Source: a virus (taxonomy: Duplodnaviria; Caudoviricetes). From it: 64,000 nt of DNA. Below are positions 6,920 through 60,298 of this stretch, in pieces. The stretch's first letter is position 1. Each line of letters starts with the position of its first letter. A program made the translations under genes and the position numbers. The notes under the pieces were generated by a model, which searched no databases, was not told the DNA's origin, and saw only the letters and a program-made list of their open reading frames with translations. The stretch is taken from IMG/VR virus record IMGVR_UViG_3300002895_000002, positions 64,001-128,000 of that record; one strand, given 5' to 3'.

Positions 6920-7378
6920 ATGGACAAATTTATTGGAATACTCGAAGAACAAATTATGATCGATCTTATTAATGAAGAAAGATCACAAACTCAAAAGGAT
7001 GCGATGGAACGAGACTATAAAGCTCTCAAAAGTATTCATCGAATCACCGGAAAATTTATTCCTCTTTCAAAAATGGATGGATTGAGATACTCTGTAAATA
7101 ACAAAGGTCAGCATTTCCATCTTATACATGATAGTATTGGTGTTGATCACAAAGTCAGTTTTGATGACGTCAACCATCATGCTGGAATTGGAACACATGA
7201 ATTTGCAGATTTCCTTAATAGACACGGTGCAAGACAAGTAGATTACAATGGGAAAGATATCCCAGATCATCTCAAGTTTGCTCCATCCAGAGTTGCCTCA
7301 TCGTCAAATAATCAAAATGGATCAAAATCATGGAAACAGGTTGGTCCTAACGGATTTTGGAAACTCGTCGACGCCTAG
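6920..7378 (+). CDS. hypothetical protein, candidate head-internal protein
   Basis: MDKFIGILEE N-terminus; late promoter and RBS upstream. Confidence 0.65.
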   Translation: MDKFIGILEEQIMIDLINEERSQTQKDAMERDYKALKSIHRITGKFIPLSKMDGLRYSVNNKGQHFHLIHDSIGVDHKVSFDDVNHHAGIGTHEFADFLNRHGARQVDYNGKDIPDHLKFAPSRVASSSNNQNGSKSWKQVGPNGFWKLVDA

Positions 7379-7387
7379 GAGAATAAT

Positions 7388-9181
7388 GTGAAACGCTTTC
7401 TTCAATATCTAACAGAAGCTCCCCTCAGCCCCAAGCATAAAAAAGAATTGCACCTTATGATGGGGAAAGAATACCCAGAACCAACCAAGGATGATCGGAT
7501 CGAGATTCCTTTACACTCAGGACCTGATGTTACTCCACATCCCGATGTACAATCCCACCTGGAGAAGCACGGTTATCAGATCAAGGATTACAAGGCTGGT
7601 ATTGCCTACCACCCCGAGAAGAAGCAGGAAATCAAAATCGGTAAAGCTCTGGAGAAAACCAAAGCTGAAGGATCGGTTGTTGCTGCGTTCAGAGATGACC
7701 CAAGGCGTGCTCTGTCAAAGAAGGCTGATAGTGATCTGAAGGTTGTTATCACCAAACATCCCCACGATATCGCCAACAAGAGCACCAACCAACACTGGAC
7801 TAGCTGCATGGATATGGATGGTGGGTCAAATCGTCATTATATTCCAGCTGATATTCGTGCTGGTGCTCATGAGGCATATCTGGTTCACAAAGATGATCAC
7901 AATCTCGAGAACCCACTTGGTCGCATCTCACTCAAGCCGTTCCACTCATACGATATCGAACATGGAGACCACACCATCCTCCGCCCTGAGGGTAAAACGT
8001 ATGGTGCCGGTCATGCTGCGTTTCATAAGACAGTTCAGGATTGGGCTGAGAAGACACACCCAGCACATCCCGAACGAGTCTATACCAAAGACGAAGATCT
8101 GTACAATGATGATGACCGTCATAAGATTTACGGATCGAAAGTGATGGATCGCTTCTCTAAATCAGAAGACTTTGATCAACGCAGTTACGCAGCACAACAT
8201 GGTGAAGCTCATCATATCGACAACATAATCAAAACGATGGGAAATCATCCGTATAGCTATGGAATAACGAAAGCAATCGCCCAAAACCCACATGCGACTC
8301 CGGAACACCTTCGGACTCTCGCACACCATGAGCGGGCTTCAGCTACTTTGATGGGTCATGTTGTTAATCATCCAAACGCTCCCGATGATGTGATCGATCA
8401 TGCAATTGACCGATTTGATACTCATGCAATAGAGTTTGCTAAGAGTCCAAATCTGAAACCGGCTCACATTGATAAGCTGTTAGCGAAGGGAAGTGGAAAC
8501 GTTGCTCGGGTTCTTGGCTCTCACCACAACCCGCAACCACATCACTTCGACGCGTTGGCGAATCACGAACATTGGACCGTCCGGCAAGCTGTTGCTGAGA
8601 ACCCAAGGCTCCCCGTTCATCACCAAGAGAAACTGGCTGAGGATGAGGATAGTGACATCAGGGAGAGCCTGACAAAGAACCCGAATCTGAAACATCACGT
8701 CATAAGCAAACTGATTCAGGATCCCGTCAACTCGGTTATCCAACATGTTGCTGAACATGCTAAGGTCAATGATGATCACGTCAAGGAGCTTGCAAAGCAT
8801 CCGAATAACGGGGTCCGATTCAATCTTGTAAACAACCCACACCTCAAGTCTCATCATCTGGATCATATTATCGATCACAGTGATGATGAGACGGTTCATA
8901 ATCTGGTTCTAGAGAATCCTCTTGTCACTAAAGATCACATCCATAAGATGATCAAGAAGGGCAAGGTATTTGGCGGCAGAGTCATTGAGCATCCTTTGAC
9001 TGATGAAAGTCACATGGAAGCAATGGCAAAATCACCAATTGAGGATATGCGGTTCACTGTTGCTCGGCACAGAAACGCACCAGAGCATGTTCTCAAGCAT
9101 TTGTCTAATGATTCTGATGAAATGATCCGCAGTAGAGCACAGAGACAGCTCAGACTACGTTTCGACCACGATACTGAATAA
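7388..9181 (+). CDS. His-rich protein with C-terminal LRV/HEAT-like repeats, candidate head-internal protein
   Basis: GTG start, KRFLQYLTEA; repeats such as VRQAVAENPRLP, IRESLTKNPNL, VRFNLVNNPHL, MRFTVARHRNAP. Confidence 0.75.
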   Translation: MKRFLQYLTEAPLSPKHKKELHLMMGKEYPEPTKDDRIEIPLHSGPDVTPHPDVQSHLEKHGYQIKDYKAGIAYHPEKKQEIKIGKALEKTKAEGSVVAAFRDDPRRALSKKADSDLKVVITKHPHDIANKSTNQHWTSCMDMDGGSNRHYIPADIRAGAHEAYLVHKDDHNLENPLGRISLKPFHSYDIEHGDHTILRPEGKTYGAGHAAFHKTVQDWAEKTHPAHPERVYTKDEDLYNDDDRHKIYGSKVMDRFSKSEDFDQRSYAAQHGEAHHIDNIIKTMGNHPYSYGITKAIAQNPHATPEHLRTLAHHERASATLMGHVVNHPNAPDDVIDHAIDRFDTHAIEFAKSPNLKPAHIDKLLAKGSGNVARVLGSHHNPQPHHFDALANHEHWTVRQAVAENPRLPVHHQEKLAEDEDSDIRESLTKNPNLKHHVISKLIQDPVNSVIQHVAEHAKVNDDHVKELAKHPNNGVRFNLVNNPHLKSHHLDHIIDHSDDETVHNLVLENPLVTKDHIHKMIKKGKVFGGRVIEHPLTDESHMEAMAKSPIEDMRFTVARHRNAPEHVLKHLSNDSDEMIRSRAQRQLRLRFDHDTE

Positions 9182-9205
9182 TCTGAGAGGAATAAATAAT
9201 ACAAG

Positions 9206-9880
9206 ATGAAGATTTTTGGACCGATAGACATAAACCTGAACCAGGCCATCGAGCTTGGCCTGGAGAGACTGCCTGACTTTCCGCCGGTAGATGATGCCAA
9301 GCTCGGCCGGGTGTTCTTCCATCTCGGGAACTCCACTGCATACCTATGCATTCTTGAGTATGACCCGCTGAATCCAACTACCACACCGATCTGGAAGAAC
9401 ATTGGCGGCGGTGCAGAGATCAGCGACACTGAAGTTACTCTGTTCAAGACGTGGTCGTCCCAGAAGATTCGTGATGAGATCGACCTGGCCAAGCTCAACC
9501 GTCAGACGGTGTATGACATTGCTGGATCTATCCATGGGGTTGTGCCGGGTGGTGAAGTTGCAGTCATGCGTTTCGTTGCTGTTACACCGTTCTACTTCGA
9601 GAACAACTTCCCGAACAGCCAAGGGCGGTGTGAGAATGTGGATCACATGGGCATCGACCTGGGCATAGTCATCTCGTTCACTATGTGCAAGAACGGTGTA
9701 CCATTTGGACAGATGACATTCACCTCTGAATATGCGGTGTTCACTGGGCCGCGGACAGACTTCGAGATTCGGGATGTGCTGACTGTACTCTCACCAGCAG
9801 TCGTGCCAACGGTTGAGTTTGCTGGAAACCCATACACGCCATCCAATGCCGAATGGACATTGGTTGCTACTTTACGATAG
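9206..9880 (+). CDS. putative virion fibre/structural protein
   Basis: MKIFGPIDINLNQ N-module and TWSSQKI motif shared with other genes in the cluster; ATAAATA at 9192. Confidence 0.65.
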   Translation: MKIFGPIDINLNQAIELGLERLPDFPPVDDAKLGRVFFHLGNSTAYLCILEYDPLNPTTTPIWKNIGGGAEISDTEVTLFKTWSSQKIRDEIDLAKLNRQTVYDIAGSIHGVVPGGEVAVMRFVAVTPFYFENNFPNSQGRCENVDHMGIDLGIVISFTMCKNGVPFGQMTFTSEYAVFTGPRTDFEIRDVLTVLSPAVVPTVEFAGNPYTPSNAEWTLVATLR

Positions 9881-9886
9881 GAGAAT

Positions 9887-11101: not shown

Positions 11102-11122
11102 ACACTAAAGGAGAAATAACTC

Positions 11123-14970: not shown

Positions 14971-14972
14971 TC

Positions 14973-25855: not shown

Positions 25856-25860
25856 AACAA

Positions 25861-25880
25861 GGGGGAGGGGAACCTCCCCC
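25861..25880 (+). terminator. GC-rich hairpin (possible terminator/stabiliser)
   Basis: GGGGGAGG-GGAA-CCTCCCCC; no U-tract. Confidence 0.45.
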
Positions 25881-25895
25881 ACCAAAGGACATCAC

Positions 25896-26258
25896 ATGAA
25901 GTCATTCAAGTCATTCATTGCTGAAGGAAAGATCCCTTCTGAGGTTGCTGCCAGGAACGAGCAGATCGACATTGAGGCCGTTGTGCGCGATGCCGTCAAG
26001 GAGTTTCATGGTATGGATGATGCAGCCATCAAGGCCATCACTGACTATATGCGTCCGAAGAAAGTGTTCAGCCTTGGCAAGATGATCGACGATCTTCCTT
26101 ACGGTGCAGGTGCAATGAAGGCTGCCATCGAAGCGGTCAAGAAGGCTGCTTCCACTGCCGGGTTCGGTAAGACGGGTGGTGGGTCTAAACCTCAGACCCA
26201 GGCTCAGAGAATAGACACGTACCTGAAGCAGAAGCACATCGGACCAATCAAGAGATAA
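25896..26258 (+). CDS. candidate head-internal protein with CTS-like N-terminus
   Basis: MKSFKSFIAE versus T4 IPII/IPIII capsid-targeting sequence MKTYQEFIAE. Confidence 0.7.
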   Translation: MKSFKSFIAEGKIPSEVAARNEQIDIEAVVRDAVKEFHGMDDAAIKAITDYMRPKKVFSLGKMIDDLPYGAGAMKAAIEAVKKAASTAGFGKTGGGSKPQTQAQRIDTYLKQKHIGPIKR

Positions 26259-26555: not shown

Positions 26556-26665
26556 ACGGTATGAATGTTATGATGGAGTGGTAAATCAAAAAAATCCATC
26601 TTTATAAATAAACGTAGAATTGTTCAAGACGCTCTCGGAAGCGATAAAACAAGGAGACATTACAC

Positions 26666-27247
26666 ATGAAGAAATTTACTGACATGATCCGGGAAGCTGC
26701 TGAGACCAAAGCGGGATCCCAGGCACTGACCGACTTTGTTGGTCTGCTCAACGATTTCATCGAGCAGGACGTTGAAGAAGGCTGCTGTGAGTCTGCTGAA
26801 GATCATCCCCTCAACGCTCTCATCTATATTGCCAACACCCTGCCGGAAGACTGCCTCGGAAACATCACCCACGGTCTGATGGACTTCTACGGATATGACA
26901 CCGACGAGACTGCTGGTGAGGACGACGAAGATGACGTGATTGAAGAGTCCATCGATCCGGAAGAGTTTTATCTCATCACGGAAGGGTCCGTTGCTTCTGA
27001 TATGATCGCTCGTGCACGCCACGCTGTTGAGAAGAGCAAGGAAGCTCACGGCAAGAAGGGCATCCAGGCTCTCATCGCTCACGGCTACAGTGCAGAAGGT
27101 GCTCGTGCACTCCTGAAGCAGGCCAAGAAGAACCTCAAGAAGGGTCGCAAGAAGGCTCTCATGACGAGGAAGAAGCACCGCAAGATCATCGCAAAGCTCC
27201 GTGATAAAATAAGCAAGATCCGGTCTAAGATGGTCGGCAAAGACTAA
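26666..27247 (+). CDS. candidate head-internal protein, acidic N-half and very basic C-half
   Basis: MKKFTDMIRE N-terminus, internal I-x-E sites; TATAAATA at 26603. Confidence 0.7.
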   Translation: MKKFTDMIREAAETKAGSQALTDFVGLLNDFIEQDVEEGCCESAEDHPLNALIYIANTLPEDCLGNITHGLMDFYGYDTDETAGEDDEDDVIEESIDPEEFYLITEGSVASDMIARARHAVEKSKEAHGKKGIQALIAHGYSAEGARALLKQAKKNLKKGRKKALMTRKKHRKIIAKLRDKISKIRSKMVGKD

Positions 27248-27433: not shown

Positions 27434-28090
27434 ATGATTGCTATTTCGGCAAGTATCGAAAAAATTGAAGCAAACCCAGAATTTGATTTTCAGTGGTCTC
27501 TTTTCGAGTGCACTGAACATTACATCCAACGGCTCTGGGACAATAACATCCCTGACAACGTGGCAGTTATTCACCTCCCACCAAAGAGCACTGAGGCTCA
27601 GATCGAGAGGTTGATTGGATGGGCAGCAATCAATAATGATAGGCCGGTTGTTGTCCACCCAAACCATACGGTGATGCGGGTCCTCGGTAAACATGAGAGA
27701 CAGGGTCTCACTCACATCTGTCTAGAGAATTTTCCATACTCCAGCAAGAAACCACTCCGGACACCACTGAACATTATGGACTATGCTGTCAGGAACGGCT
27801 TCGGGATCTGTTACGATTATGCTCACGTGGATCCGGATAATGAGCCAGCCTTTCGCTCACTAGAATTCCTCAGATCATATCTCCCGTTCGTTAGAGTGAT
27901 TCATTTCTCAGGGAACCGACACGATAAGCTCACTGAAGATGACTGGAGGGTGTGGAAGAACCTCATTCTCAATTACCCTGGAAGCTTGAGTGGTGTTGAA
28001 TGGTTCTGTCTTGAGCATAAACATGAAGCAGACAAAACAAATGACGGGAACAGGTTGGCAAAGGTGTTTAGTGAATTGTCTAAACAATAA
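27434..28090 (+). CDS. xylose-isomerase/AP-endonuclease-2-like TIM-barrel protein
   Basis: VVVHP, CLENFP, ICYDYAH, IHFSG and CLEH metal-ligand spacing; RBS AAGGAG. Confidence 0.6.
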   Translation: MIAISASIEKIEANPEFDFQWSLFECTEHYIQRLWDNNIPDNVAVIHLPPKSTEAQIERLIGWAAINNDRPVVVHPNHTVMRVLGKHERQGLTHICLENFPYSSKKPLRTPLNIMDYAVRNGFGICYDYAHVDPDNEPAFRSLEFLRSYLPFVRVIHFSGNRHDKLTEDDWRVWKNLILNYPGSLSGVEWFCLEHKHEADKTNDGNRLAKVFSELSKQ

Positions 28091-28098: not shown

Positions 28099-29019
28099 AT
28101 GGTAAAGTCATTCAAAAAATATCTTGCGGAAGAAGAATCGGTATCTGCTACTAAAAGGCAGAATATGCAACATCTCACCCAAATGAAGCCCCGGGAATTT
28201 ATAGATCTCATGCGGCAGTTTCGGGATGAGCTCAACGGGATTATTTCTTCAGAGAAGGTTGATGTCTCAGAGAAGGTTGATGGCTTCGGTATCCGTTTTG
28301 GGGTTGATGATGGTGGTAAGTTCTTCATTGAATCATCCCGGTCCGGACCACAGTTCCACCACGGAGCATTCTCAGCCTACGCAAAAGCAAAGTTTGGCGT
28401 CGCTGATAACATCTCAGCAGGGTATGATGATATTTTCAAGAAGCTTGGAGAGTATAAGCAACTTCAGGATCTTTTGAAGAAGAATGGCCCAGTCAAGGTC
28501 ATTGGTGAGTGTCTTTACAATCCGAACGCTACTCTGACGGATCATGGGCTGAAATTCATTGCCACAACATACAACCCGAAGCTGCTCGGGAAGTGGGCGA
28601 CCTTCGTTCTCTTCCATACTGATCCGGATAAGGATCACCTCATAGATCAGATCAAGGCATTATCCACTCATGAGATCAAGTTCGCAACACCAGAAGTTGA
28701 TTATAATGATGTGGATATTACCTATCACATCAAAGACTTCTTCCAATTCGTTGATCAATATCCTAATATCAAAGAGATTCTCGCTTCCAGAAAAGCAGCG
28801 GATCGAGACCTCAAGAAAATGATCATTGACACATTCCAACGCTTCCAGAAGGATGTGACTGACAAGATAGCTTCGGGGATTGAGAAAGGGCAGTTTGGTC
28901 CGGAGGTTGAGGGAGCTGTCTTTGGGGTCAATGATACCAAGTTCAAGGTAACCACTCAGAGCTTCAAGAAGAACAAAGAACTGTTCAACACAGAATTCAA
29001 GGCCAAGAAGGGATTATAG
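28099..29019 (+). CDS. ATP-dependent ligase-like nucleotidyltransferase with CTS-like N-terminus
   Basis: SEKVDG (motif I KxDG), VIGECL (III), EGAVF (IV), KFKV (V); MVKSFKKYLAE; ATAAATA at 28087. Confidence 0.65.
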   Translation: MVKSFKKYLAEEESVSATKRQNMQHLTQMKPREFIDLMRQFRDELNGIISSEKVDVSEKVDGFGIRFGVDDGGKFFIESSRSGPQFHHGAFSAYAKAKFGVADNISAGYDDIFKKLGEYKQLQDLLKKNGPVKVIGECLYNPNATLTDHGLKFIATTYNPKLLGKWATFVLFHTDPDKDHLIDQIKALSTHEIKFATPEVDYNDVDITYHIKDFFQFVDQYPNIKEILASRKAADRDLKKMIIDTFQRFQKDVTDKIASGIEKGQFGPEVEGAVFGVNDTKFKVTTQSFKKNKELFNTEFKAKKGL

Positions 29020-30147
29020 ATGGGCGGTAATGCTTCGGTATTCAAGGATGGTCAACTCGTTGCTCAGGCTGAGAAGATAGACCTCAGCAAAGTAAGCAGA
29101 GGGTCCATAATTCCTGAGGTCAAAAAGACCCTTCATGCTATCGACTCTGCTTTCGCAAAGGAGTATGGTGTCCATCTCTGGCCCAATCATTCCATCATTG
29201 ACAACGGGTCGATCTTTGCTGGGTCGTCACAGTTCTTCATGGACCAGAGTATTAGTCACGATGAGTTTACACAACACAAACCGACCGTGGGTGACATTGA
29301 TGTCCAGATACCTCATGCGTACAAAGATCACCTGGACAAAATTCTCAAGCCAGGAAAACATTTTGGGTTGATGAAATATCACGGTCGGGCTGATACTTCT
29401 CTGTCTCAGCTCAACTGCGTGTTTGAACTCAAAGCTGGAATACACACCATCAACATCCAGATCGACTTCGAACCCGTTGATTGGCACGAGGAAGGCCCGA
29501 CTGGTTGGTCGCAGTTTGCTCATTCAGCAGATTGGGACGACATCAAGAGCGGTGTCAAGGGAGTCTTTCACAAATATCTGGTTGGTGCGGTTGACTTTGC
29601 TTACCAAAAACCAATCACTGTCCTTACAAGAAAAACCCTGAAGCCGAAGAAGGTTGATGCCCACGATTATGCCTTCAGTGTAGAGAAGGGCCTCCGTCAA
29701 AAATATGTCCTGGCCAAAGATGAGCACAGCAAGCCGATCATGGTTGATGGTGTCCAGGCCTTCTTCGAGATAGACCCCAAAGAGGCTGACTATATCACCG
29801 ACGTGGCTAGCATCTTCGTGGTTCTCTTTCGTATCGTTCCTGATCACGATGATCTGAAAAAGTTTGCGAGCTTCACTGGTGTTGTTGACCTGATTGATCG
29901 GGAGTTCAGTGGTTCCCAGCAGGCTTTGATCGTTGACGAGTTCCTGAAGCGGTGCTGGGGCAAGGGGGCTCAAGCTTTAGAAAGGGACGCACCAGAAATA
30001 GACGCTAAAGCTAAATGGGCAGCCGTCAACTATTTGGCCGATAAGTTACAAATGCCAAGCATTATAAAGAAAGCAGAATTATTAGTCGGCGAGTATTATA
30101 AGTCATATAAGATGAGTAAAGACAGGAGGGAGTATGCTAAAAGTTGA
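29020..30147 (+). CDS. Pol-beta-superfamily nucleotidyltransferase
   Basis: IFAGSS, GDIDV (DxD) and IQIDF catalytic motifs. Confidence 0.7.
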   Translation: MGGNASVFKDGQLVAQAEKIDLSKVSRGSIIPEVKKTLHAIDSAFAKEYGVHLWPNHSIIDNGSIFAGSSQFFMDQSISHDEFTQHKPTVGDIDVQIPHAYKDHLDKILKPGKHFGLMKYHGRADTSLSQLNCVFELKAGIHTINIQIDFEPVDWHEEGPTGWSQFAHSADWDDIKSGVKGVFHKYLVGAVDFAYQKPITVLTRKTLKPKKVDAHDYAFSVEKGLRQKYVLAKDEHSKPIMVDGVQAFFEIDPKEADYITDVASIFVVLFRIVPDHDDLKKFASFTGVVDLIDREFSGSQQALIVDEFLKRCWGKGAQALERDAPEIDAKAKWAAVNYLADKLQMPSIIKKAELLVGEYYKSYKMSKDRREYAKS

Positions 30148-30673
30148 CGAAGTACCAACAACTCCAGGACATGATAAAGTGACAGTGCTTATCGGTCGCT
30201 TTCAGCCTGTCACTTTCGGCGGCCATGGGAAGATGTACAATGAGGCCAAGAAGCTCGGTCATCCAGTAGTCATCTTCGTCGTCCGTGGAGAGAAGTCTGA
30301 CCCCAAAAAGAGTCCGTTCCCACTGGATCTAACGATAGAGATGGTGAGGAGTACATTTCCGGAGGCGACTGTATTACATGTTGGTTCCGCCTTTATAGGA
30401 GATTTCGTAAAGATTCTGCGGGATCAAAACATGGAACCAACCACTATCTTTTGTGGAACGGATCGGGCTAAAAGCTACAGAAAACAGATTGAATCATACA
30501 GTGATGTATGGAATCTAAAACTGGATTTACATGAAGTTGAACGAAATTCAGAAGATGTAAGTGCTACCTCAGTTCGGGATGCAATCAAAAATAACGACCG
30601 GATTCTTTTCCAAAACATGACAGCACCTCAGTGTCATCACTATTTCGACAAGCTGTTGTCCTTTCTCAAATAA
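30134..30673 (+). CDS. HxGH-type (cytidylyl/adenylyltransferase-like) nucleotidyltransferase
   Basis: GRFQPVTFGGH, PFP, GTDR and SATSVR motifs. Confidence 0.8.
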   Translation: MLKVDEVPTTPGHDKVTVLIGRFQPVTFGGHGKMYNEAKKLGHPVVIFVVRGEKSDPKKSPFPLDLTIEMVRSTFPEATVLHVGSAFIGDFVKILRDQNMEPTTIFCGTDRAKSYRKQIESYSDVWNLKLDLHEVERNSEDVSATSVRDAIKNNDRILFQNMTAPQCHHYFDKLLSFLK

Positions 30674-30684
30674 GGAGAGAACAA

Positions 30685-30834
30685 ATGAAAGAGCAGTGGA
30701 AGACTTTGGTTATTGAAATTGACTTCATGCCACCAAATGACGAAGCTGAGCAGAGTTTCGTTGATTATGCTATTAAGGCGATGAGTCCGCAACAAATAGC
30801 AGATTTCCGATACAAAGTCATTGAAAAGAAGTAA
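30685..30834 (+). CDS. small hypothetical protein
   Basis: RBS AAGGAG; MKEQWKTLVIE. Confidence 0.45.
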   Translation: MKEQWKTLVIEIDFMPPNDEAEQSFVDYAIKAMSPQQIADFRYKVIEKK

Positions 30835-30884: not shown

Positions 30885-31115
30885 ATGGCACATTTTGATA
30901 AGATCATCAATGCTCTGGAGAGTGGCAGGACAGCAGAACAACAGGTTGGTGACAAGTCGAACGATCCGGCTGAGAAGAGGCGGTATTACGACGCGATGCA
31001 CGATTCTTCGATTGCTATCCATACTGGGTCAAAGAGAGAACACCAAGAAGCTCTCAAGAACCACAAGGACGCTCTGTCAAAAGCAACTACTCCGGAGATA
31101 ATCGAAAAAGCATAA
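30885..31115 (+). CDS. small hypothetical protein
   Basis: ATAAATA at 30847 and GGGAG RBS. Confidence 0.55.
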   Translation: MAHFDKIINALESGRTAEQQVGDKSNDPAEKRRYYDAMHDSSIAIHTGSKREHQEALKNHKDALSKATTPEIIEKA

Positions 31116-33656: not shown

Positions 33657-34424
33657 TTAGGGCCTCTCTGATTTAGATTTTCTCTTTTCCCAAGAGTTCT
33701 TTATTGCCTGTTTATGAGATTCTGATTTTTTCTTTCCTGTATGAATTTCTGATAATTTTTTCTTTGTTTCTTCGGACATTGGCTTTCGATTTTTTGCTGC
33801 TTTTTTCATTTTTTGTTTCGTTTCTTCGGACACTGGCTTTCGATTTTTTGCTGCTTCTTTCATTTTTTGTTTCGTTTCTTCGGAATGTTCTTTACGGGGT
33901 TTCCCTTTGTGGCTTTCACTTAAATTGTTTTTGTGTTCTTCAGAAAAGAGTCTACCTTTTAATGACTTAGAAATTTTGGCCCGATGTTCACTTGTAAATT
34001 TTCTGTCTTTGAGCGTATTTTTTATTTTTTGTTTTCGCTCATTATCAAGTAAAGAACCCAATAATTTGCCTTTATTTGAATTTCCAATTTTTTGTTTGGT
34101 TTCTTCTGAATGATTGTAGTTTAGGTTCAACCATTTATAATCTTTAGAGGTATATTTTCCATTATTTGACATATAGGAAAATGCTCTAGTCATTTTCGGC
34201 CCCTTGATTTTATGTCCTCTCCATATACGGGCAAGAAGTAGATGAGCAATGAAGTGCTCACGAAGGGGAAGATTTACTCTGTTCCAGGATCCATCAATAT
34301 CATCTATTCCGTCGATTTTTGCAAATGAACGAGGAATGATGTGGTGATCCTCTGTTTGTTTCTTTACTTTTGGGGTGTTACGATTACGTTCGATAATGCG
34401 GTTATAGATTGTTTGATAATCCAT
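33657..34424 (-). CDS. HNH homing endonuclease with NUMOD3 repeats
   Basis: EDHHIIPRS..N.V.L..REHFIAHLLL; HSEETKQK repeats. Confidence 0.88.
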   Translation of the reverse strand: MDYQTIYNRIIERNRNTPKVKKQTEDHHIIPRSFAKIDGIDDIDGSWNRVNLPLREHFIAHLLLARIWRGHKIKGPKMTRAFSYMSNNGKYTSKDYKWLNLNYNHSEETKQKIGNSNKGKLLGSLLDNERKQKIKNTLKDRKFTSEHRAKISKSLKGRLFSEEHKNNLSESHKGKPRKEHSEETKQKMKEAAKNRKPVSEETKQKMKKAAKNRKPMSEETKKKLSEIHTGKKKSESHKQAIKNSWEKRKSKSERP

Positions 34425-34484
34425 ATAAATACCTTTAGAGAAGTTTTTAACTATCAAACTTATTTATCTACATCGGAGAAAATT

Positions 34485-36495: not shown

Positions 36496-37126
36496 CTAAA
36501 TGGATAGTTTACGTTTCAGATGTGCAAGTCTCATTTTTTCTTTGGTTTCAGGTGAATGTGTTTTTCCTTTCATGCCTTTTGGATGCCCATTTTTTAAACT
36601 ATCCTTTATTTTTTGGCAATGCTCTAATGAAAGTTTTTTACCTTTCTTTTCTGAAGGTTTTCCTTTGTTGGCTTTACTCATGATGTCTTTAATTTCATCA
36701 GCACGGTCAGGGCTCATTTCTTCTAAAGTACGTCCTTTACGCGCTGATGGTTTTCCTTTATGCCATTTTCCTCCACGTGCGCTTGATTCTCTAAGTCGCT
36801 CTTTGGTTTTTTCATCGGCAAATTGATACGTATTGCCGCCATTACCACCAGGAACTAAGTTATAGGTGTCTTTTCTGGAAATAAACCATTCATCAACTAT
36901 TTGTTTTTCTATTTCTAACGCATGTTCAGCTGATATACAGTAATGAAGAATAATTCTGACGAAGTTTTCTTTTCCATATTTCTTTACTGCTTTGACTATG
37001 TTTCTACCAGAACCAATATAACCGTCATCAATGCGATTAGTTGACCTTTTTTCCAACATAGATTTTGCTGTTTATTAAATTGGTGGTAAGATAAACAAAA
37101 TGAAATGACTTTTCTTCATGTGCCAT
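36496..37126 (-). pseudogene. GIY-YIG/NUMOD3 homing endonuclease split by a frameshift
   Basis: ATG 37126 gives MAHEEKSFHFVYLTTNLINSKIYVGK, then stops; the domain continues (RSTNRIDDGYIGSG) in another frame after an A6 run at 37047-37052. Confidence 0.8.
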
Positions 37127-37243: not shown

Positions 37244-37972
37244 ATGATAAGTTTACCAAATGAATTACGATTTTCTCCCTACAGTCACAGCAAGATGTCA
37301 CTCTTCTATGAGTGTCCTCACAAGTGGTACCATACATACATCACGAAATCCATGCCGCGTGAACAGAAAGCCGCGTTTGAGAAAGGCGGCTTCATTCACT
37401 ACGCTCTGGATCATTACCCCAACCCCACCCCGAAGAAATACACGTTCAAACTCGCCAGTAATGAAATGCAAGAGGAATGGGTTGATCTTCTCAAAACCAT
37501 CCTTCAGCAGCCTCGAGTCAGAACTATCATCAAGAACAAGATTAACAGTGAATTTACCTGGATCTTGGATCACAACTTCACTCTCGGAACAAACAAGTGG
37601 AAATCGTTAATCTACGGGGTTGTTGACGGAATGACACAGACAGGAAACCGGCTCTGTCTGTACTACTGGAAGACCGGTAAGTCCGATGGCGATAGTGACC
37701 AACTCAAACTCTATGCTCTCTGGGCAATGATTGCTCGTCCCAACCTGAAAGAAGTCCTTTGCAGTTTTGAATATGTGGAGCGAAACACTTTCGATGAATT
37801 CCGGTACGACCAGAGCCAAGTCCCGGAAATGAAAGAATGGCTCTATGAGAAGATATCAAACATAGAAAACGCAACAGAATTTAGTCCAACTCCGTGCAAA
37901 GGATGTTCTTACTGTCCGAAATACACAGTATGTCCGGCACATAAGATCACAATACCTATTTCACGCGGTTGA
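37244..37972 (+). CDS. PD-(D/E)XK RecB/Cas4-like nuclease with Fe-S cysteines
   Basis: SHSKMSLFYECP, G..IH..L, GVVD, WKTG, QLKLYA, CSYC..VC; expected catalytic Asp reads Tyr. Confidence 0.8.
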   Translation: MISLPNELRFSPYSHSKMSLFYECPHKWYHTYITKSMPREQKAAFEKGGFIHYALDHYPNPTPKKYTFKLASNEMQEEWVDLLKTILQQPRVRTIIKNKINSEFTWILDHNFTLGTNKWKSLIYGVVDGMTQTGNRLCLYYWKTGKSDGDSDQLKLYALWAMIARPNLKEVLCSFEYVERNTFDEFRYDQSQVPEMKEWLYEKISNIENATEFSPTPCKGCSYCPKYTVCPAHKITIPISRG

Positions 37973-38639
37973 TATGTGATTGTCTGATTTTATTTTTGGT
38001 TTCTTCCGATCTGGCTCTACCTAATAATGAGTCCCGAATTTTTTGTTTGGTTTCTTCTGAACATTTTCTTCCAGTGTTCACTTCTAATAATTTTGCTCTA
38101 TGTGATTCTGATATAGGTTTACCTTTTCTTGATTTACTCATATTTTCTTTATGTTCATCAGAAAATATTATACCTTTTCTAGACTCACTTATTTTTCTCT
38201 TGGTTTCTTCTGATCTGGGTTTAGAATTTTTACCTTTCATTGCTTTGCTTCTTTTATCAATATGCTCTTTTGATTGTTTTCTGCCTTTTTGAGATTTGCT
38301 CATTTTTATTATTGTAGCTGACGAATGTTTGTAACCTAACTTTAGCCAAGAATAATCTTTGGATGTATATTTTCCATTATTTGACATATAGGAAAAGGCT
38401 CTAGCCATCTTCGGACCTTTCACTTTATGACCTCGCCATATACGAGCAAGAAGCAGATGGGCAATGAAGTGCTCACGTAAAGGAAGATTAACTCGATTCC
38501 ATCGTCCATCGATATCATCTATTCCATCAAGTTTAGCAAAGGACCTAGGGATGATGTGGTGATTTTCAGTTTGCTTTTTGATCTTGGGGGTGGTACAATT
38601 GCGTTCGATGATACGGTTGTAAATTGATTGATAATCCAT
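37956..38639 (-). CDS. HNH homing endonuclease with NUMOD3 repeats (paralog of 33657-34424)
   Basis: ENHHIIPRS..REHFIAHLLL; near-identical N-terminal ~95 aa to the paralog. Confidence 0.88.
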   Translation of the reverse strand: MDYQSIYNRIIERNCTTPKIKKQTENHHIIPRSFAKLDGIDDIDGRWNRVNLPLREHFIAHLLLARIWRGHKVKGPKMARAFSYMSNNGKYTSKDYSWLKLGYKHSSATIIKMSKSQKGRKQSKEHIDKRSKAMKGKNSKPRSEETKRKISESRKGIIFSDEHKENMSKSRKGKPISESHRAKLLEVNTGRKCSEETKQKIRDSLLGRARSEETKNKIRQSHINRVK

Positions 38640-39985: not shown

Positions 39986-41101
39986 ATGCGAGACTTTATT
40001 CTCAGCACTTTTATCACCAAACGAGGAACTTGTGATAGTTCAAAAATAAATCTTCTCTCAAATTATCATGATGACCTAGTTGAACTTGTTCCTGGGTGTG
40101 ATGGTGATGATAAAGAACGATTGTTTTGGTTATCGAGAGGGATAACAGAAGCTCCGGTTTGCAAAACTTGTGGTGGAAAAACAAAGTGGAAAGGGCTCTT
40201 TACTGTTGGAAAGAAGAGCTCTTATCCACTTTTCTGTTCTCCTGCTTGTAGAGCAAAAGATCCAGATGTTACCGAAAAACTCAAGGACTCTCAGTCAAAT
40301 CTCTATCAAGATGAAATGTTAGCAGTTTCTAATAAAGATGAATTGATAGAAATAATCAAACGTCGTTATTATAATGGCAGCAAAACAAATGGCAACTTCC
40401 TTCGTGCTCTCACTCCAAATATAAAAAGTCTACTCAATACTCTTACTCCAAAACTCAAATCTAACGACTACAAAGAAAAGATCTATTGGGTGATGAACGG
40501 ATTTGAAGACTACCCAAATTGGTGTTCGTGTGGCAACCCAATCACTCAGTTTAGAAAAGAATATAAGTGGAAGTTCTGTTCTAACAAATGCAAAGCAAAT
40601 GATCCTGATTTCCAAAAACAAAGAATCGAAACAACAACCTCACGATATGGGACTTCAAATAACAATGCAAAAACCAAACAAACAAACATAAAGAAGTATG
40701 GTGTTGAAAACGTATCACAAATCCCAGCGGTAGCTGATAAGATACTCAAAAATGGACACAGAAAGAAAGTATACACATTTCCTTCTGGAAGAAAAGTATT
40801 CGTTCAAGGATACGAGCCCCAAGCAATCGATGAATTGTTGAAAACATATAATGAAGATGATATTGTTCTTGATCGAAAACAAATACCAACATTTTGGTGG
40901 AACGACAAAACAGGAAAGAAGCACAGATATTTCCCTGATATATTCATCCCAAAAGACAATCTGGTAGTTGAAGTAAAGAGTAAGTGGACCTATGACTCTG
41001 CAAAAGATGTAAATGAGCGAAAGTTCGAACGTGTTCGGGAATCTACCTACAACTTTCGTTTGATGATACTTGATAAATACCAATGGAGGATTCTACCATG
41101 A
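39986..41101 (+). CDS. putative homing endonuclease (Zn-ribbon repeats plus C-terminal PD-(D/E)XK domain)
   Basis: CKTCG/CSPAC/CSCG/CSNKC, KKYGVENVSQ, VQGYE, YFPDIFIP..VVEVKS; AT-rich. Confidence 0.75.
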   Translation: MRDFILSTFITKRGTCDSSKINLLSNYHDDLVELVPGCDGDDKERLFWLSRGITEAPVCKTCGGKTKWKGLFTVGKKSSYPLFCSPACRAKDPDVTEKLKDSQSNLYQDEMLAVSNKDELIEIIKRRYYNGSKTNGNFLRALTPNIKSLLNTLTPKLKSNDYKEKIYWVMNGFEDYPNWCSCGNPITQFRKEYKWKFCSNKCKANDPDFQKQRIETTTSRYGTSNNNAKTKQTNIKKYGVENVSQIPAVADKILKNGHRKKVYTFPSGRKVFVQGYEPQAIDELLKTYNEDDIVLDRKQIPTFWWNDKTGKKHRYFPDIFIPKDNLVVEVKSKWTYDSAKDVNERKFERVRESTYNFRLMILDKYQWRILP

Positions 41102-41535
41102 ACAAATTCATAGATATGCTCGAAACAGCTCCACAAGTCAATAAGAAACTTGCTGACAGTCAGGCCAAGATTGCTCAGCGAATCCGTATCCAGAAGGAAC
41201 GGGAAGCTCAGATCAAAGCAATGACCATGCAGGAATCTGAGGACTTTGATCAGTATCTTTCGTCCATTGACTCTGTGATCTATGAGAACGCTGCTGTTCA
41301 TCCTGAAGGTGGGGCAGTTCGGGATGGTGGTCGTTTTGTTCTGAGTCATCATGTCATAAAGACGGATCCCTATCTCTTCGGCATGGACACGGACGAGCAC
41401 AAGCGATTCATTTCGAAGGCAGGGACCAAAGGCGATGCAAAAGTAACAATGCATGCTCCTGGGTTCTACGATCTGTATTTTGACGATGGTGACATTGTTC
41501 CAGCAATATCCGGTCATTTCGTTAAGCCGGCATAA
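41098..41535 (+). CDS. hypothetical protein, candidate head-internal protein
   Basis: MNKFIDMLE start; RBS GGAGG. Confidence 0.6.
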   Translation: MNKFIDMLETAPQVNKKLADSQAKIAQRIRIQKEREAQIKAMTMQESEDFDQYLSSIDSVIYENAAVHPEGGAVRDGGRFVLSHHVIKTDPYLFGMDTDEHKRFISKAGTKGDAKVTMHAPGFYDLYFDDGDIVPAISGHFVKPA

Positions 41536-49924: not shown

Positions 49925-49969
49925 TTGATAAAAATCCTCCTTGTGTTATAATAAACAAGGAGGATTTTT
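49925..49969 (+). promoter_or_regulatory. promoter in the loop of an RBS-sequestering hairpin
   Basis: TTGATA(49925)-16 nt-TGnTATAAT(49947); IR AAAAATCCTCCTTGT/ACAAGGAGGATTTTT, whose 3' arm contains the SD. Confidence 0.7.
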
Positions 49970-49970
49970 T

Positions 49971-51668
49971 ATGGCCTGGAATGCTCAAAAATATAAAGAA
50001 ATAGTAGATGAGATTTTGTCCAATGATACCATTATCCCAGCATCAGAAGAAGAATTAAAAAATCACATAATAAAAAATAATTTAGAAAAAGATCCTGCGA
50101 ATATCAAGAAAAAAATAATAAATTATCCATCAATATTCAAATCGTTTATTATACTGCAACAGAAATTTGGAAATGAAACTATCCGAAGAATTTTGGAGCA
50201 AAATTTCAATCCATTTTTTTGTTCATGTGGCTCTGAGATTGCGTTTGGAAAAACACTTTGTTCAAGATGTGCAGGTATACAAACAAAAAAAGGATGGAAA
50301 GAAAATAATAAAATCATAAACATTGATGAATTATATAATTTACTTAATAATATCAAAAATAATAATTCAATGTCTCAGGAAATCATCAAACAGGGACTCT
50401 TATCTAGTCTAATTACTCATACATCTTTTTTGCCAAATTCAGCAAAGATTACAGAACGATGTTTCTGTATATTAAACCATATATCTTCTATTCAATTGTG
50501 TAAATGTGGTGCTCCTTTATCATTTTCTACTTTTAAGAAAGGATATAGATCTACATGTTCAAAAGTATGTAATGGGAAAATATCCAAAGGAAGAAATCAA
50601 ACTAAGAAGAAAAATCAGGGTTGGGAAACACTAAACAAAAAATATAACGACAATTCAACAATGAATATCATATCACCCGCTATTGATTTTTTTGATTCTA
50701 GAAAAATTACAATCAAATGTTCAAAATGTGGGTTTGAAGAACAATGGCAATATTTAGGATCTACATATTCAAAAAATTGTCCCAAGTGCACAAAAAATGG
50801 AGTTTCTTTTCCCGAAATTCAGCTAACTGAATTTCTTACGGAACATAATATCAGAGTTGAACGGGGGTTGAAAAAGAAATTTGGTCATAACGAAATTGAT
50901 CTTTTTCTTCCAGAATACAATCTTGGGATCGAATACAATGGTTTATTCTACCATTCTGAATATAATGGAGGGAAAGACCGAAGATATCATATCAACAAAA
51001 CAATAGCAATGGAAAATTGCGGATTTCAATTGCTTCATATATTTGAGGATGAATGGATTTATCACCAAGAAATAGTTAAGTCAATGATTTTATCAAAAAT
51101 AGGGAAACTTTCAAATCGAATATATGCAAGAAATACAATACCATCCATTCTAACATCCAAAGAAAAATCATTATTTCTTAATGAAAATCATATTCAAGGA
51201 AATGACCAATCATCAATAGCAATAGGTCTAAAAGACAAGACGGGAAATATTGTTGCTGTTGGTACATTTGGAAAAAGAAAACTAGGACAAAATAAAAATC
51301 CAGATTGGGAATTGATAAGATTTTGCAATATGATAAATACTAATGTTATTGGTGGAATGAGTAAAGTTATATCTGAATTTTTCAAAATAAATCCCGAAAT
51401 TAACAAACTTATTTCATATGCTGACAGACGATGGAGCACTGGAAAATCATATCTGAAAATTGGGTTTGAGCTAGTATCAGTAACACCACCAAATTATTGG
51501 TATGTCAAAGGGCAAAAAAGAATACATAGAAGTGCTTTCATGAAGAGCACATTACATTCAAAACTAAAAGATTTTGATCCACAGAAAACCGAATGGGAAA
51601 ACATGATTATAAATAATTATGATCGAGTATGGGATTGTGGATCGATGAAATTTATTCTAACCAAATAA
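49971..51668 (+). CDS. large putative homing endonuclease (Zn ribbons plus DUF559-like PD-(D/E)XK domain)
   Basis: EIDLFLPEYNLGIEYNGLFYH, IFEDEW, ARN, RFC..V.GG.SK and R.WDCG; very AT-rich. Confidence 0.8.
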   Translation: MAWNAQKYKEIVDEILSNDTIIPASEEELKNHIIKNNLEKDPANIKKKIINYPSIFKSFIILQQKFGNETIRRILEQNFNPFFCSCGSEIAFGKTLCSRCAGIQTKKGWKENNKIINIDELYNLLNNIKNNNSMSQEIIKQGLLSSLITHTSFLPNSAKITERCFCILNHISSIQLCKCGAPLSFSTFKKGYRSTCSKVCNGKISKGRNQTKKKNQGWETLNKKYNDNSTMNIISPAIDFFDSRKITIKCSKCGFEEQWQYLGSTYSKNCPKCTKNGVSFPEIQLTEFLTEHNIRVERGLKKKFGHNEIDLFLPEYNLGIEYNGLFYHSEYNGGKDRRYHINKTIAMENCGFQLLHIFEDEWIYHQEIVKSMILSKIGKLSNRIYARNTIPSILTSKEKSLFLNENHIQGNDQSSIAIGLKDKTGNIVAVGTFGKRKLGQNKNPDWELIRFCNMINTNVIGGMSKVISEFFKINPEINKLISYADRRWSTGKSYLKIGFELVSVTPPNYWYVKGQKRIHRSAFMKSTLHSKLKDFDPQKTEWENMIINNYDRVWDCGSMKFILTK

Positions 51669-52228: not shown

Positions 52229-52260
52229 AAGAAAGGGGTTTCTTTAGCCCCTTTTCTCTT
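52229..52260 (+). terminator. probable intrinsic terminator after gp19
   Basis: AAAGAAAGGGG..CCCCTTTTCTCTT. Confidence 0.55.
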
Positions 52261-52287
52261 GATAAATAACATAGAACTGGAGGAAAA

Positions 52288-54193: not shown

Positions 54194-54196
54194 ACC

Positions 54197-55593: not shown

Positions 55594-55605
55594 AGGATCG
55601 AACGA

Positions 55606-56079: not shown

Positions 56080-56127
56080 TTTCTAATTTCTAACTGATTT
56101 TGATAAATAAATCAGGAGGAAATAGTA

Positions 56128-56778: not shown

Positions 56779-56796
56779 ATAGAGTGGGAGATTACA

Positions 56797-57219
56797 ATGG
56801 CCAAACCTTCAAAAATATCTCATTCAAGCATGTACTATTTCCGGTATGTTCATCCTGCTGGAGAAGGAAAACTCAACGTCTTTGACAAGGCTCCGTTGGT
56901 TATTCCGCTCGACTGGAACCGGAAATCCATGCTCGCTGTCAACGTTCACTGGCTGCCCCGGGGAACTAGAATGAAACTCATTCAACAAGTCCTTGCTGTT
57001 GCTGAACAGAGACGAAATGGTAAAAAACTTCCGAAGTTGCTTTACAGCATGGTTAAGTATGACCCGAACTTTCGGTTTGCTATGCAAGCAATTCGTCGGT
57101 ACCATATAGGCAGGATTACAAATTGGACAGAAATTCCACCAGAGAAATGGGAACATGCTCTGGGTGTTACACGATTCAGGGCCCGGAAAGCATATAAAGC
57201 AAAAGGCTACCGTATATAA
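56797..57219 (+). CDS. gp2: DNA end protector protein gp2-like
   Basis: MYYFRY, FDKAPLVI, .AVNVHWLP...R, IRRY and P..W motifs. Confidence 0.8.
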   Translation: MAKPSKISHSSMYYFRYVHPAGEGKLNVFDKAPLVIPLDWNRKSMLAVNVHWLPRGTRMKLIQQVLAVAEQRRNGKKLPKLLYSMVKYDPNFRFAMQAIRRYHIGRITNWTEIPPEKWEHALGVTRFRARKAYKAKGYRI

Positions 57220-57229
57220 AGGACAGATC

Positions 57230-59008
57230 ATGGCAAATCTACTCGAAATAATCAAACATCCGTTTCAAACAATTGAAGAAGCTCTGAACAAACCGTTCTA
57301 CAGTCCTGTTGAAGCTGAGCTTGAGGCTCTCAAGGATTCGAGTCAGATAACCAAGGAAAAGGATACTGAACGCGGTTACGTTGCTTACGATCCATTCTCT
57401 GTCACCGCGAACATGGATCTCATCAGCTCCATTTCTGCGAATGGAAACTATGTCGATCGTCTTCGTAAGTGGCGGGATGTTGCTCAGCTTCCTGAAGTTG
57501 ATGAAGCCATTCAAGAGATTGTGAACGAAGCTATCGTTTATGATGATATTGAAGAAACGATTAAACTGAACCTGGATGGAGTTGAACTTCCCGACAAGTT
57601 TAGGAAAGCCATGAAAGACAGTTTTAATCACATTCTCTACTTACTCGACTTCAACCAACGCGGTGATGAACTGTTCCGTCAGTGGTATGTTGACGCTAAA
57701 CTGGCCCTTGAGGTTGTGTACGATAACGAGAATGTTCAAGCTGGTATCCAAAAGGTTGTTCTACTTCCTCCTCAGTACATTACCAAAGTCAAGAACGTTC
57801 AAACCGGTGAGTATCGATGGATCGTTAAGGAGAAGCCCTCATACAATCCAGTCAAAGATATTGAAGATCCAGAAAAGACTCTGTATGACGAGCAGGTCAC
57901 CTACATCGATTCCGGAGTATACTCACAGGATAAGAAATTTCCAATTTCTCATCTGAACAAGGCCCTGAAGGTTATCAACCAGCTGTATCTGATTGAGGAC
58001 TCAGTCATCATTTACCGGATCACCAGAGCCCCCGAGAAAAGGATCTTCTACGTTGATACAGGTAACCTTCCCAAGACCAAGGCTGAAGAATACATCAAGA
58101 GCTTGATTCTCAAGTATCGCCAGAAGAAGATATACAACTTCGAGACTGGTCAGGTTGAGAACAAAGCTAAGCAGATATCCATCCTGGAAGATTTCTGGTT
58201 CCCAGTCAACGCAGCAGGTAGGGGGACAAAGGTTGAGAACCTAGCTGGCACTGGTGCTGATCTTACCAACCTGGCTGACATTGATTATTTCCAGAACAAG
58301 CTCTACAAGGCACTGAATCTTCCTATCTCCCGGAGAAACCCGGAAGGTCGGATGATGATGGGGTCTAACCTGGACATTGAGAAGGACGAGCTCAAGTTCT
58401 TTAAATTCGTCCTCAAGCTACGTCGTCGCTTCAACAATATGTTCGTTGATTTGATGAAGAAGGACCTCTTGGCTAAGCAGGTCTTTACTCTGGATGACTG
58501 GAAACAGATCCAAGAGAAGATTAAGTTCATCTACGCTAATGATAATGCTTATTCTGAGATCCGTCAACTGCAAATCCTGAACATGAGAACTGAAGCTGCT
58601 CAAGGTCAATTTGGTTTGGTTGAGCAAGGCATGAATTCTAAGATCCGCATCCAGAAAGAAATCTTCAAGCGGACCGATGAAGAGATTATGGAGATTCATA
58701 ATGAATGGCTTGCAGAAAACCCACCGCCAGATGCATCTCCTGCTCAGATCCAGGAAATGATTGAAGAAGCAGTGGATGGACTCAGAGACGAAGTAAAATC
58801 CGCTCTCAGCTCAGTGATAAATACGTTGAACCTGGAGAATCTCGCAGAATTGGTTGCTGAGAAACTCAAGCCAGTTACCTCAAAAGATTCCGTCGTTATT
58901 AAGCGTTCTGTTCTCGAATCCATGAAAGAAGGCGATGTTATTGAAAGCGGAAACGAGCGATTGAAGGTCGAGAACGGCCGGGTTGTTTTTGAAAAAATAA
59001 CTAAATAG
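57230..59008 (+). CDS. gp20: portal protein
   Basis: PEVDEAI.EIVNEA, WYVD, EDSVIIYRITRAPEKRIFYVD.GNLPK.KAEEY, LEDFW and KLYKALN.P.SR. Confidence 0.97.
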   Translation: MANLLEIIKHPFQTIEEALNKPFYSPVEAELEALKDSSQITKEKDTERGYVAYDPFSVTANMDLISSISANGNYVDRLRKWRDVAQLPEVDEAIQEIVNEAIVYDDIEETIKLNLDGVELPDKFRKAMKDSFNHILYLLDFNQRGDELFRQWYVDAKLALEVVYDNENVQAGIQKVVLLPPQYITKVKNVQTGEYRWIVKEKPSYNPVKDIEDPEKTLYDEQVTYIDSGVYSQDKKFPISHLNKALKVINQLYLIEDSVIIYRITRAPEKRIFYVDTGNLPKTKAEEYIKSLILKYRQKKIYNFETGQVENKAKQISILEDFWFPVNAAGRGTKVENLAGTGADLTNLADIDYFQNKLYKALNLPISRRNPEGRMMMGSNLDIEKDELKFFKFVLKLRRRFNNMFVDLMKKDLLAKQVFTLDDWKQIQEKIKFIYANDNAYSEIRQLQILNMRTEAAQGQFGLVEQGMNSKIRIQKEIFKRTDEEIMEIHNEWLAENPPPDASPAQIQEMIEEAVDGLRDEVKSALSSVINTLNLENLAELVAEKLKPVTSKDSVVIKRSVLESMKEGDVIESGNERLKVENGRVVFEKITK

Positions 59009-59020
59009 GATATACAGTAG

Positions 59021-60298
59021 ATGAAATCCTTCAAGGATAGAACATTGGGTGAGCAGACTGGTCCTGTCGAGGTATTTGACACGATCATCCGCAAAGATCA
59101 CTTTGATGCACAGGTATTATCCGAGGCGATCGTCACTGCATTGTCCTCTATTCATCAACTGTCTGTGACCCAAGGTGAGCAAGGCCCGGCAGGGCCCTCA
59201 GGTCCTCAAGGCCCGCCTGGGGAGAAGGGTGACCAGGGTCTTACTGGACCTGAAGGACCGCAAGGTATCCCGGGACCAAAGGGAGACCAAGGCATCCAGG
59301 GCGAGCAGGGCCCACAAGGGGAACGGGGTCCTCAGGGTCCACAAGGTGAGCGTGGCGAGCAAGGGCCTGAGGGTCCTCGGGGTCCTCGGGGGGAACAGGG
59401 TCCTGAAGGTCCGATTGGCCCACAAGGGGAACAGGGTCCTCAGGGTCCACAAGGTGAGCGTGGTGAGCAAGGCCCTGTTGGCCCAAAGGGTGATAAAGGT
59501 GATAAGGGAGAACGTGGTGAGCAGGGCCCAATGGGTCTTGAAGGTCCGCGTGGCCCAGCTGGTCCAAAAGGTGATCCAGGTAAAGATGGAAAGCCAGGCA
59601 AAGACGGAGCTAAAGGACCGAAGGGTGAGAAGGGTGAGAAGGGTGAGAAGGGTGATCCTGGTCCTCAGGGTGAGAAGGGTGAAAGGGGTCCACAAGGCTT
59701 TACTGTTGTAGGTCCAGAAGGCCCTGCTGGTCCGCCAGGCCCACAAGGGGAACAGGGTCCTGAAGGTCCACAAGGACCAAAGGGCGATCCAGGCAAGACA
59801 CCCGCCCATCAGTGGAACGGTGCAGCTATCCGTTTTGAGAACCCAGATGGGACCTGGGGTACAGCTGTTGACCTGAGCAAGCTGATCGTTCGTGCACAAC
59901 CTACAGGTGGTGGGTCTGGTGCACATCCCATGTCGTTCGTTTATGATGGCCAGGTTTTACAAGAGCCACGGTACATCATCGTCGACGACCACAGCATGGA
60001 GTTGATCCCTGATGGGCTCGGTGGGGCAACACTGAAGGCCAAAGCTGGTGGTGGAGGGAATGTAGGGAACGGATGGGAGCGATCACTCTTTGTGGTAACT
60101 AATCCAGCTCAAAGAGACTACGTGGTTCCTGGAGCTATCTTTGAAAACAGCGAGACGGTAGATGTCAACGGTCTGGTTGTTGTGAATGATCCAGATTGGG
60201 ATTATGTCGTAATAAATAGTAACACCATAAGATTCAGTCCTGCAGTCATTCTGAAAGCAGGGTGGAGAATCCAAGTAAAGTACCAAACTCCGGTATAA
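59021..60298 (+). CDS. collagen-like protein
   Basis: Long G-X-Y run ([10 protein letters not shown]...) between N- and C-terminal globular parts. Confidence 0.9.

Follow-up and report, generated by a model that had tools for sequence, protein, structure and literature searches.

In bacteriophage T4, the internal proteins IPI, IPII and IPIII begin with a capsid targeting sequence (CTS) that is removed by the prohead protease gp21 (PMC9026906, PMC3012670). This leader occupies the extreme N-terminus and comprises ten residues, with longer variants such as the 19 residues of IPI (which starts MKTFKEF in the T4 record), and its key residues are an aromatic at position 4, a hydrophobic residue at position 7, Ile or Leu at position 8 and Glu at position 10, residues 4 and 7 serving targeting and residues 8 and 10 processing (review of the work of Mullaney and Black, 1996, PMC9026906). 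Here we analyze bases 64001-128000 (the window, 64,000 nucleotides) of a 213,116-bp IMG/VR virus record, IMGVR_UViG_3300002895_000002, in which seven proteins, lettered A to G and placed by their start positions in the window, had been proposed to carry leaders of this kind. We conclude that at least five unrelated proteins of the window, and probably seven or more, begin with a T4-like capsid-targeting tag. On the evidence presented below, the shared N-termini are likely to be T4-type CTSs, and the proteins that bear them are likely to be packaged into the head and trimmed by a gp21-type protease.

The leaders share with the T4 CTS their place at the extreme N-terminus, their length of ten residues with longer variants, their key residues, and their occurrence on unrelated proteins encoded in small clusters of a genome that also has a gp21-type protease and a gp22-type scaffold. 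In the T4 record, IPII and IPIII do start with MKTYQEFIAE, as the earlier note on this DNA had stated, with Ala following the cut; the leader of A, MKSFKSFIAE, is identical to this sequence at six of the ten positions and differs from it by conservative changes at two more. By contrast, the phage described here is very distant from T4 and has at least 15 genes with a predicted tag compared with three tagged genes in T4, its predicted cargo includes large proteins and enzymes, a second leader class has 13 residues, and no homology links the mature parts to the internal proteins of T4. T4 also packages the ADP-ribosyltransferase Alt, which, like gp67 and gp68, enters the prohead and is trimmed by gp21, showing that natural cargo need not consist of small inhibitors; the Alt propeptide, however, is unlike the leaders described here, and no homology of B, C or D to Alt, gp67 or gp68 was found.

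Two more distant systems are comparable. In phage P1, an N-terminal signal is sufficient to load the anti-restriction protein DarB into the head, but this signal has about 30 residues and no motif in common with the present leaders, and P1 has a stepwise Dar assembly and no gp22-type scaffold (PMC9024508). The ejection proteins of SPN3US, phiKZ and 201phi2-1 are internal to the head and are cut after Glu by a T4-related prohead protease, and the giant-phage paralogues gp53 and gp54 share identical N-termini, which may be likened to the shared leaders here, whereas the giant-phage propeptides are mostly longer than 100 residues and have the motif A-x-E or S-x-E (PMC5694885). Among the papers searched, we found none on such expanded tag sets outside the T-even phages, only general remarks that relatives of the T-even phages have other CTS-bearing proteins (PMC9026906), and the paper on Sinorhizobium phage PhiM9 gives no propeptide data. 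The mechanism proposed is the known one of T4. New here are its nearly unchanged use in a lineage very far from T4, how many and what kinds of proteins are predicted as cargo, the two leader lengths, and the gain and loss of leaders among orthologues.

Leaders in the window and across the genome

The seven genes are listed below with their lengths in amino acids (aa).

6920..7378 (+): E, 152 aa, leader MDKFIGILEE; ATAAATA box resembling a late promoter at 6861
7388..9181 (+): C, 597 aa, GTG start, leader (M)KRFLQYLTE; at its N-terminal end a domain found in a large phage family, then LRV/HEAT repeats
25896..26258 (+): A, 120 aa, leader MKSFKSFIAE; basic, isoelectric point 9.6 without the leader
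26666..27247 (+): D, 193 aa, leader MKKFTDMIRE; acidic central part, tail very basic; ATAAATA box at 26604
28099..29019 (+): B, 306 aa, leader MVKSFKKYLAE (longer by one residue); predicted RNA-ligase-fold nucleotidyltransferase with KxDG; ATAAATA box at 28087
41098..41535 (+): G, 145 aa, MNKFIDMLE followed by Thr; ATAAATA box at 41073 and a GGAGG ribosome site
59021..60298 (+): F, 425 aa, protein with collagen repeats right after the portal gene; opens MKSFK

All seven N-termini quoted in the earlier note were found at their claimed starts, with open frames of 120-597 aa behind them. The starts of A, B, D, E, F and G are identical in the IMG gene calls (exact look-ups, 100% matches), and the GTG start of C has a strong AGGAG ribosome site upstream. 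The description of the proteins as otherwise unrelated also held, their mature parts being without mutual similarity in an all-against-all blastp comparison (all E > 0.05).

To avoid circularity, the rule by which leaders were recognized was taken from T4 genetics and not from this genome; it requires Met 1, an aromatic 4, a hydrophobic 7, Ile or Leu 8 and Glu 10. In the 213-kb genome this rule was obeyed by seven gene starts, and additionally by B if one extra residue was allowed. Within proteins, the same pattern occurred at a frequency of 3.8e-4 per residue; the expected number of matches was 0.11 for the 294 genes (Poisson P = 4e-11) and 0.65 for all 1,684 candidate starts (P = 6e-6). A DNA-level pattern of the leader gave four matches, compared with none in the reversed control, and the leader residues are kept while their codons vary. 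Position 4 in the proteins of this phage is most often Phe (31 of 294). The tetrapeptide KSFK, which opens A, B, F and one more gene, has no internal occurrence in these proteins.

The two targeting residues, aromatic 4 and hydrophobic 7, are present in A, C, D and E, in B with a one-residue shift, and in G (Phe 4 and Met 7); F has residue 4 only. The two processing residues, Ile or Leu 8 and Glu 10, are found in A to E and only partly in F and G. We are confident in predicting that A, B, C, D and E bear the tag, and regard F and G as probable or partial members. We agree with the earlier note that G is the weaker case: M-L-E lies at positions 7-9, with Thr at position 10, and the cleavage site is imperfect. 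G scored 13.1 bits with a leader matrix built without it, and no homologue was found among 5.8 billion proteins. In T4, a change of residue 10 can stop processing while targeting persists (PMC9026906); G may be packaged uncut, or it may be cut after Glu 9.

Beyond the window the genome holds at least ten further members, clustered at about 4.9-8.2 kb, 35.3-36.8 kb and 150.3-151 kb; the earlier note had missed these as well as one possible member within the window.

Genome 7823, 35287, 35742 and 36265: ten-residue leaders, the last three on adjacent genes
Genome 4897, 5433, 7563, 150340 and 150626: 13-residue leader class, M-x-x-F ... L-(L/N)-E
Genome 54195, minus strand: further member
Window 30885..31115 (+): possible member of 76 aa that begins MAHFDKIINALE (long-leader type), with an ATAAATA box lying 38 nt upstream

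The candidate at 30885 is weak, its predicted site being A-L-E instead of I/L-x-E. A 12-codon frame with a perfect leader, MKTFIKSIAENE (genome 142799-142834, minus strand, starting at 142834), lies antisense inside an RNase H-like gene and is without a ribosome site; it is probably a chance match, about 0.04 being expected per genome, or a relic, and was set aside.

Relatives, homologues and the separable leader

The comparison with relatives is the strongest part of the case for the leader as a predicted targeting module. Contigs of closer relatives (L021, L022, L023 and L027) were reached through homologues of B, E and A, and orthologues in them keep the leader while the body of the protein diverges. 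The E orthologue of L023 is 54% identical and starts MNNFQILIEE; the D orthologues of L021, L022 and L027 are 32-34% identical overall and have kept the leader, which in L021 has seven of ten residues identical to that of D. The tagged set itself turns over. A has an identical leader in the close relative L027 and is absent from the corresponding site in L021, C is absent from L023 between thyX/E and the next fibre gene, and relatives have tagged genes that are missing here. In one relative, about ten tagged genes stand in a row. A scan of viral contigs with A found no relative. A scan with the capsid protein yielded relatives at 33-49% identity, with almost no leader genes at their capsid loci, and a metagenome scan with the portal protein yielded relatives at 27-32% only. 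The occurrence of a near-identical tag across phages whose capsid proteins are only about one-third identical suggests a very old, portable targeting system.

Just upstream of the ribosome site of A, at about 25860-25882 of the window, lies a G+C-rich hairpin, GGGGAGG...CCTCCCC, without a T-run. Because the same hairpin precedes a different gene in L021, the MRFYGD gene, A seems to have been inserted between these two.

The clearest separation of leader and body is seen in a cassette (28099-30834) of which B is the first gene and which continues as follows.

29020..30147 (+): Pol-beta-like nucleotidyltransferase, 375 aa, without a leader, begins M-GGNA
30134..30673 (+): HxGH (NMNAT-like) nucleotidyltransferase, 179 aa, without a leader
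30685..30834 (+): leaderless remnant, 49 aa, shortened from a 242-aa leader-bearing gene of L022 (tblastn and translation)

Only the first gene has kept its leader here and the next three have lost it, while all four are tagged in relatives. In four relatives, a leader of 10-11 residues ending in Glu stands directly before the GGNA of the Pol-beta-like enzyme, and the L027 orthologue of the NMNAT-like enzyme starts MKSFRQYLEE. The presence or absence of the leader among orthologues thus falls exactly at the predicted cut, which argues that the leader is a separable module. The homologues of B also begin with variants of the same leader. In the AF2 models, which were built on alignments of the homologues, residues 1-13 of B (pLDDT 91 for the model) and residues 1-10 of the N-terminal domain of C (pLDDT 90) are disordered, and their low confidence fits a flexible tag.

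Foldseek matched the model of B to Naegleria RNA ligase, T4 Rnl2 and T4 Rnl1 with probability 1.00. Residues E58, K59, D61 and G62 are invariant in 15 homologues, four of which are matched by Pfam RNA_ligase (best 4e-5), and phmmer against the PDB sequences gave no match for B or C. By its predicted fold and its invariant KxDG (motif I), B belongs to the RNA ligase / covalent nucleotidyltransferase superfamily and is a putative enzyme. Two homologues of B, P0007 and P0012, have no N-terminal leader but carry a C-terminal leader-like extension, K-S-F-K-E/D-F/I-Y-F, as if the next tagged gene had been fused in frame.

For C, a full-length exhaustive search returned 6,983 cluster representatives at E <= 1e-3, some of which match the LRV/HEAT repeats only. 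The best 150 matches mostly align to residues ~32-250, pointing to a very large phage family (P0029-P0177 among the homologues) in which LRV/HEAT repeats often come after this region. Across 44 aligned homologues of the N-terminal domain, the consensus start was MKxFxxFLxE with ELT..QK behind it, and conservation of M1 and E10 was at least 90%. When the N-termini of 147 homologues were scored with a matrix built from the other leaders, 29% reached at least 6 bits, compared with 1% of the other genes here and 0% of the homologues' internal stretches; some homologues have only a short M-K-V-x-L-x-E start. A Foldseek search of the domain against the PDB gave no match, and the weak GNAT-like matches of a wider structural search (Z 4-6) are a lead, not a finding. 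The domain is present in the jumbo phages RsoM2USA, Atu_ph07 and Lu11 and in Erwinia and Dickeya phages. ORF132 of Ralstonia phage RsoM2USA (RsoM2USA_132) shares 35.5% identity with C (E = 5e-35) and opens with MKTFKQFLNTLME, then A, and RsoM2USA also encodes a Peptidase_S77 protease. ORF132 was among the ten most abundant virion bands identified by LC-MS/MS (PMC8504454).

Head-assembly genes and late-promoter-like boxes

The window encodes baseplate, fibre, neck, terminase, sheath, tube and portal proteins and a gp21-type protease, and the scaffold and major capsid genes lie just past its end. The tail sheath is about 40% identical to the sheaths of Vibrio, Pelagibacter and other T4-like phages. 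Megablast of two pieces of the window against cultured phages gave no match, which indicates that the phage has no close cultured relative. The genes that bear on head assembly are the following.

57230..59008 (+): portal protein (PHROG 213 at 6e-127)
63100..63783 (+): gp21-type prohead protease (PHROG 207 at 7e-64; Pfam Peptidase_S77 at 9e-27)
63861..64000 (+): start of the gp22-type scaffold gene, which runs off the window, with the capsid gene next (T4_CASP at 7e-22)

Aligned to T4 gp21, the protease has kept the His and Ser motifs. The capsid protein is 36% identical to T4 gp23, and the maturation site of gp23, FLTE/AE, aligns with VLEE/AQ, the cut lying between E and A; L-x-E followed by Ala would mark the same cleavage specificity as in T4.

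We propose that the leader is a short, disordered and detachable segment of the form M-(K)-x-F-x-x-(F/Y/I/M)-(I/L)-x-E, which would tie each protein to the scaffolding core of the prohead during head assembly. The gp21-type serine protease would then cut after Glu, and the mature protein would stay inside the DNA-filled head. The cargo would be varied, ranging over the small basic A, the RNA-ligase-fold B, the 597-aa repeat protein C and the acidic/basic D. The earlier note had assigned head packaging and gp21 maturation to all seven proteins. For A to E this is supported by the motif, the protease, the capsid site, the separable leader and the virion homologue of C; F and G fit only in part. 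A complex prediction for the gp22 scaffold and A scored 0.02, which gives no verdict and bears neither for nor against the proposal.

The ATAAATA boxes are strongly strand-biased (83 forward and 23 reverse) and precede the sheath, tube, small terminase and scaffold genes as well as B, D, E and G. From this bias and from its place before structural genes, the box behaves like a T4 late promoter. The claim that several of the tagged genes start directly behind ATAAATA stands for B (-12) and, at greater distances, for G (-25), E (-59) and D (-62), but not for A and C, which lack an individual box and are probably carried on transcripts that start further upstream, nor for F, which has only CTAAATA at -20.

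Alternative readings and the role of the cargo

Several points weigh against the reading of the leaders as CTSs of packaged, processed and injected proteins. The phage is known from an uncultured metagenomic record, its closest relatives are short contigs, and the packaging of its proteins is predicted. The data on RsoM2USA ORF132 concern its presence in the virion, not a head-internal location or removal of the leader (PMC8504454). The mature parts are unlike T4 IPI, IPII and IPIII or known inhibitors (Pfam, PHROGs and PDB; no anti-defence library was searched). G is an orphan whose targeting part is probable and whose predicted cleavage site is imperfect. D, conserved in every relative and combining an acidic block with a very basic tail, may be a core component rather than an effector. 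F lacks the full motif, is collagen-like and stands among fibre-like genes, and for this protein an external location is about as likely as packaging.

The profile searches gave no link to internal proteins. PHROG scans to E = 10 revealed no internal-protein family for eight members (A, C, E, G and four outside the window), and scans of B, D and F (to E 0.01 to 1) revealed none either; T4 IPIII itself matches four such families (phrog_5341, 2667, 8111 and 7857). Nor did these scans connect the leaders with the internal-protein families of T-even phages; a ten-residue match is probably too short for HMMER's filters.

One alternative concerns F alone, and its likelihood falls just short of even: F would be a collagen-like fibre on the exterior of the head or neck, with an MKSFK start that is no packaging signal. 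About 210 of its residues form Gly-X-Y repeats, it has tail-fibre PHROG matches, Arg-Thr occupies positions 7-8, and its neighbours carry YadA-stalk, BclA_C/C1q-like and DUF4376 domains. Set against this are the opening KSFK, never internal in this phage's proteins yet shared with A and B, the L-G-E at residues 9-11, which may be a shifted gp21 site, and the position of the gene where T4 has the core genes 67 and 68. The whole portal-to-protease gap of the window (59021-62428), the interval that holds genes 67 and 68 in T4, contains four fibre-like genes (collagen repeats, YadA-stalk-like, BclA_C/C1q-like and DUF4376), which suggests capsid or neck fibres.

A second alternative, which we consider possible but clearly less probable, accepts that the leaders target and are cleaved and takes the proteins to be head-assembly or core components, or to stay in the capsid, instead of being injected effectors or anti-defence factors. 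D suits this alternative best, since it is found at the same place in all relatives seen and its acidic block and very basic tail recall the composition of T4 gp67 and gp68; moreover, every core protein of T4 is a gp21 substrate (PMC5694885). However, D has no PHROG family in common with gp67 or gp68, B is an RNA-ligase-fold enzyme, and A, C and several leader genes specific to relatives are present in some close relatives and missing from others, unlike essential parts of the assembly. It is improbable that the leader is a protease mark only, serving timed activation or destruction without targeting: I/L-x-E alone is a cleavage motif, and some C homologues have only the M-K-V-x-L-x-E start, but the cleavage motif does not include the conserved Phe 4 and aromatic 7, which are targeting determinants in T4, and gp21 acts inside the prohead, which its substrates must reach. 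Chance, or a by-product of translation-start preference for Lys-rich, A-rich second codons, is effectively refuted: Lys is generally common at positions 2 and 3 in this genome, but start-codon context leaves Phe 4, I/L 8 and Glu 10 unexplained and is contradicted by the enrichment under either Poisson estimate, by codons that vary under constant residues, and by conservation of the leader in orthologues and whole protein families.

If the leaders are T4-type CTSs, the tagged proteins of this phage would be packaged and cleaved, and they may be ejected together with the DNA; any part in anti-defence is a guess. T4 IPI* acts against GmrSD (PMC3012670), and IPIII is needed on ECOR17; together with the fast turnover of the tagged genes, this precedent makes an anti-defence role plausible for some members, and for any given small member we would put the chance at roughly one in three. 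A more speculative idea, which we think unlikely, is that leader gain and loss acts as a switch deciding which counter-defence enzymes (RNA-ligase-like, Pol-beta-like and NMNAT-like) are preloaded into the capsid and act at time zero. If this were true, relatives would deliver all three enzymes with the DNA, whereas here B alone would enter in this way, the other two being synthesized once infection had begun; before phage gene expression, the enzymes would mend RNA that host anticodon nucleases had cleaved, or replenish NAD.

If the tag works as in T4, it would provide a sequence-readable label for proteins that travel in the capsid, so that those entering the cell with the DNA could be recognized from the genomes of uncultured T4-like and some jumbo phages, and it would narrow down the first-minute effectors worth screening against defence systems. 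CTS-based protein delivery may also widen beyond T4.

Two further features of the window were observed. A second shared N-terminus, M-(K/R)-(I/V/L/F)-(F/Y/H/L)-G-x-(I/V/L)-(D/N/K)-(L/I/T), opens at least six fibre-like genes (starts at 9206, 16111, 19852, 21090, 23597 and 26268, the last fitting only up to D). It probably represents an attachment domain shared by tail-fibre paralogues; these N-termini have Phe/Tyr at position 4 but no I/L-x-E and were not counted as CTSs. In addition, many free-standing homing endonuclease genes (GIY-YIG and HNH) interrupt the structural module at 33657-34457, 36496-37059, 37956-38639, 39986-41101 and 49941-51668.

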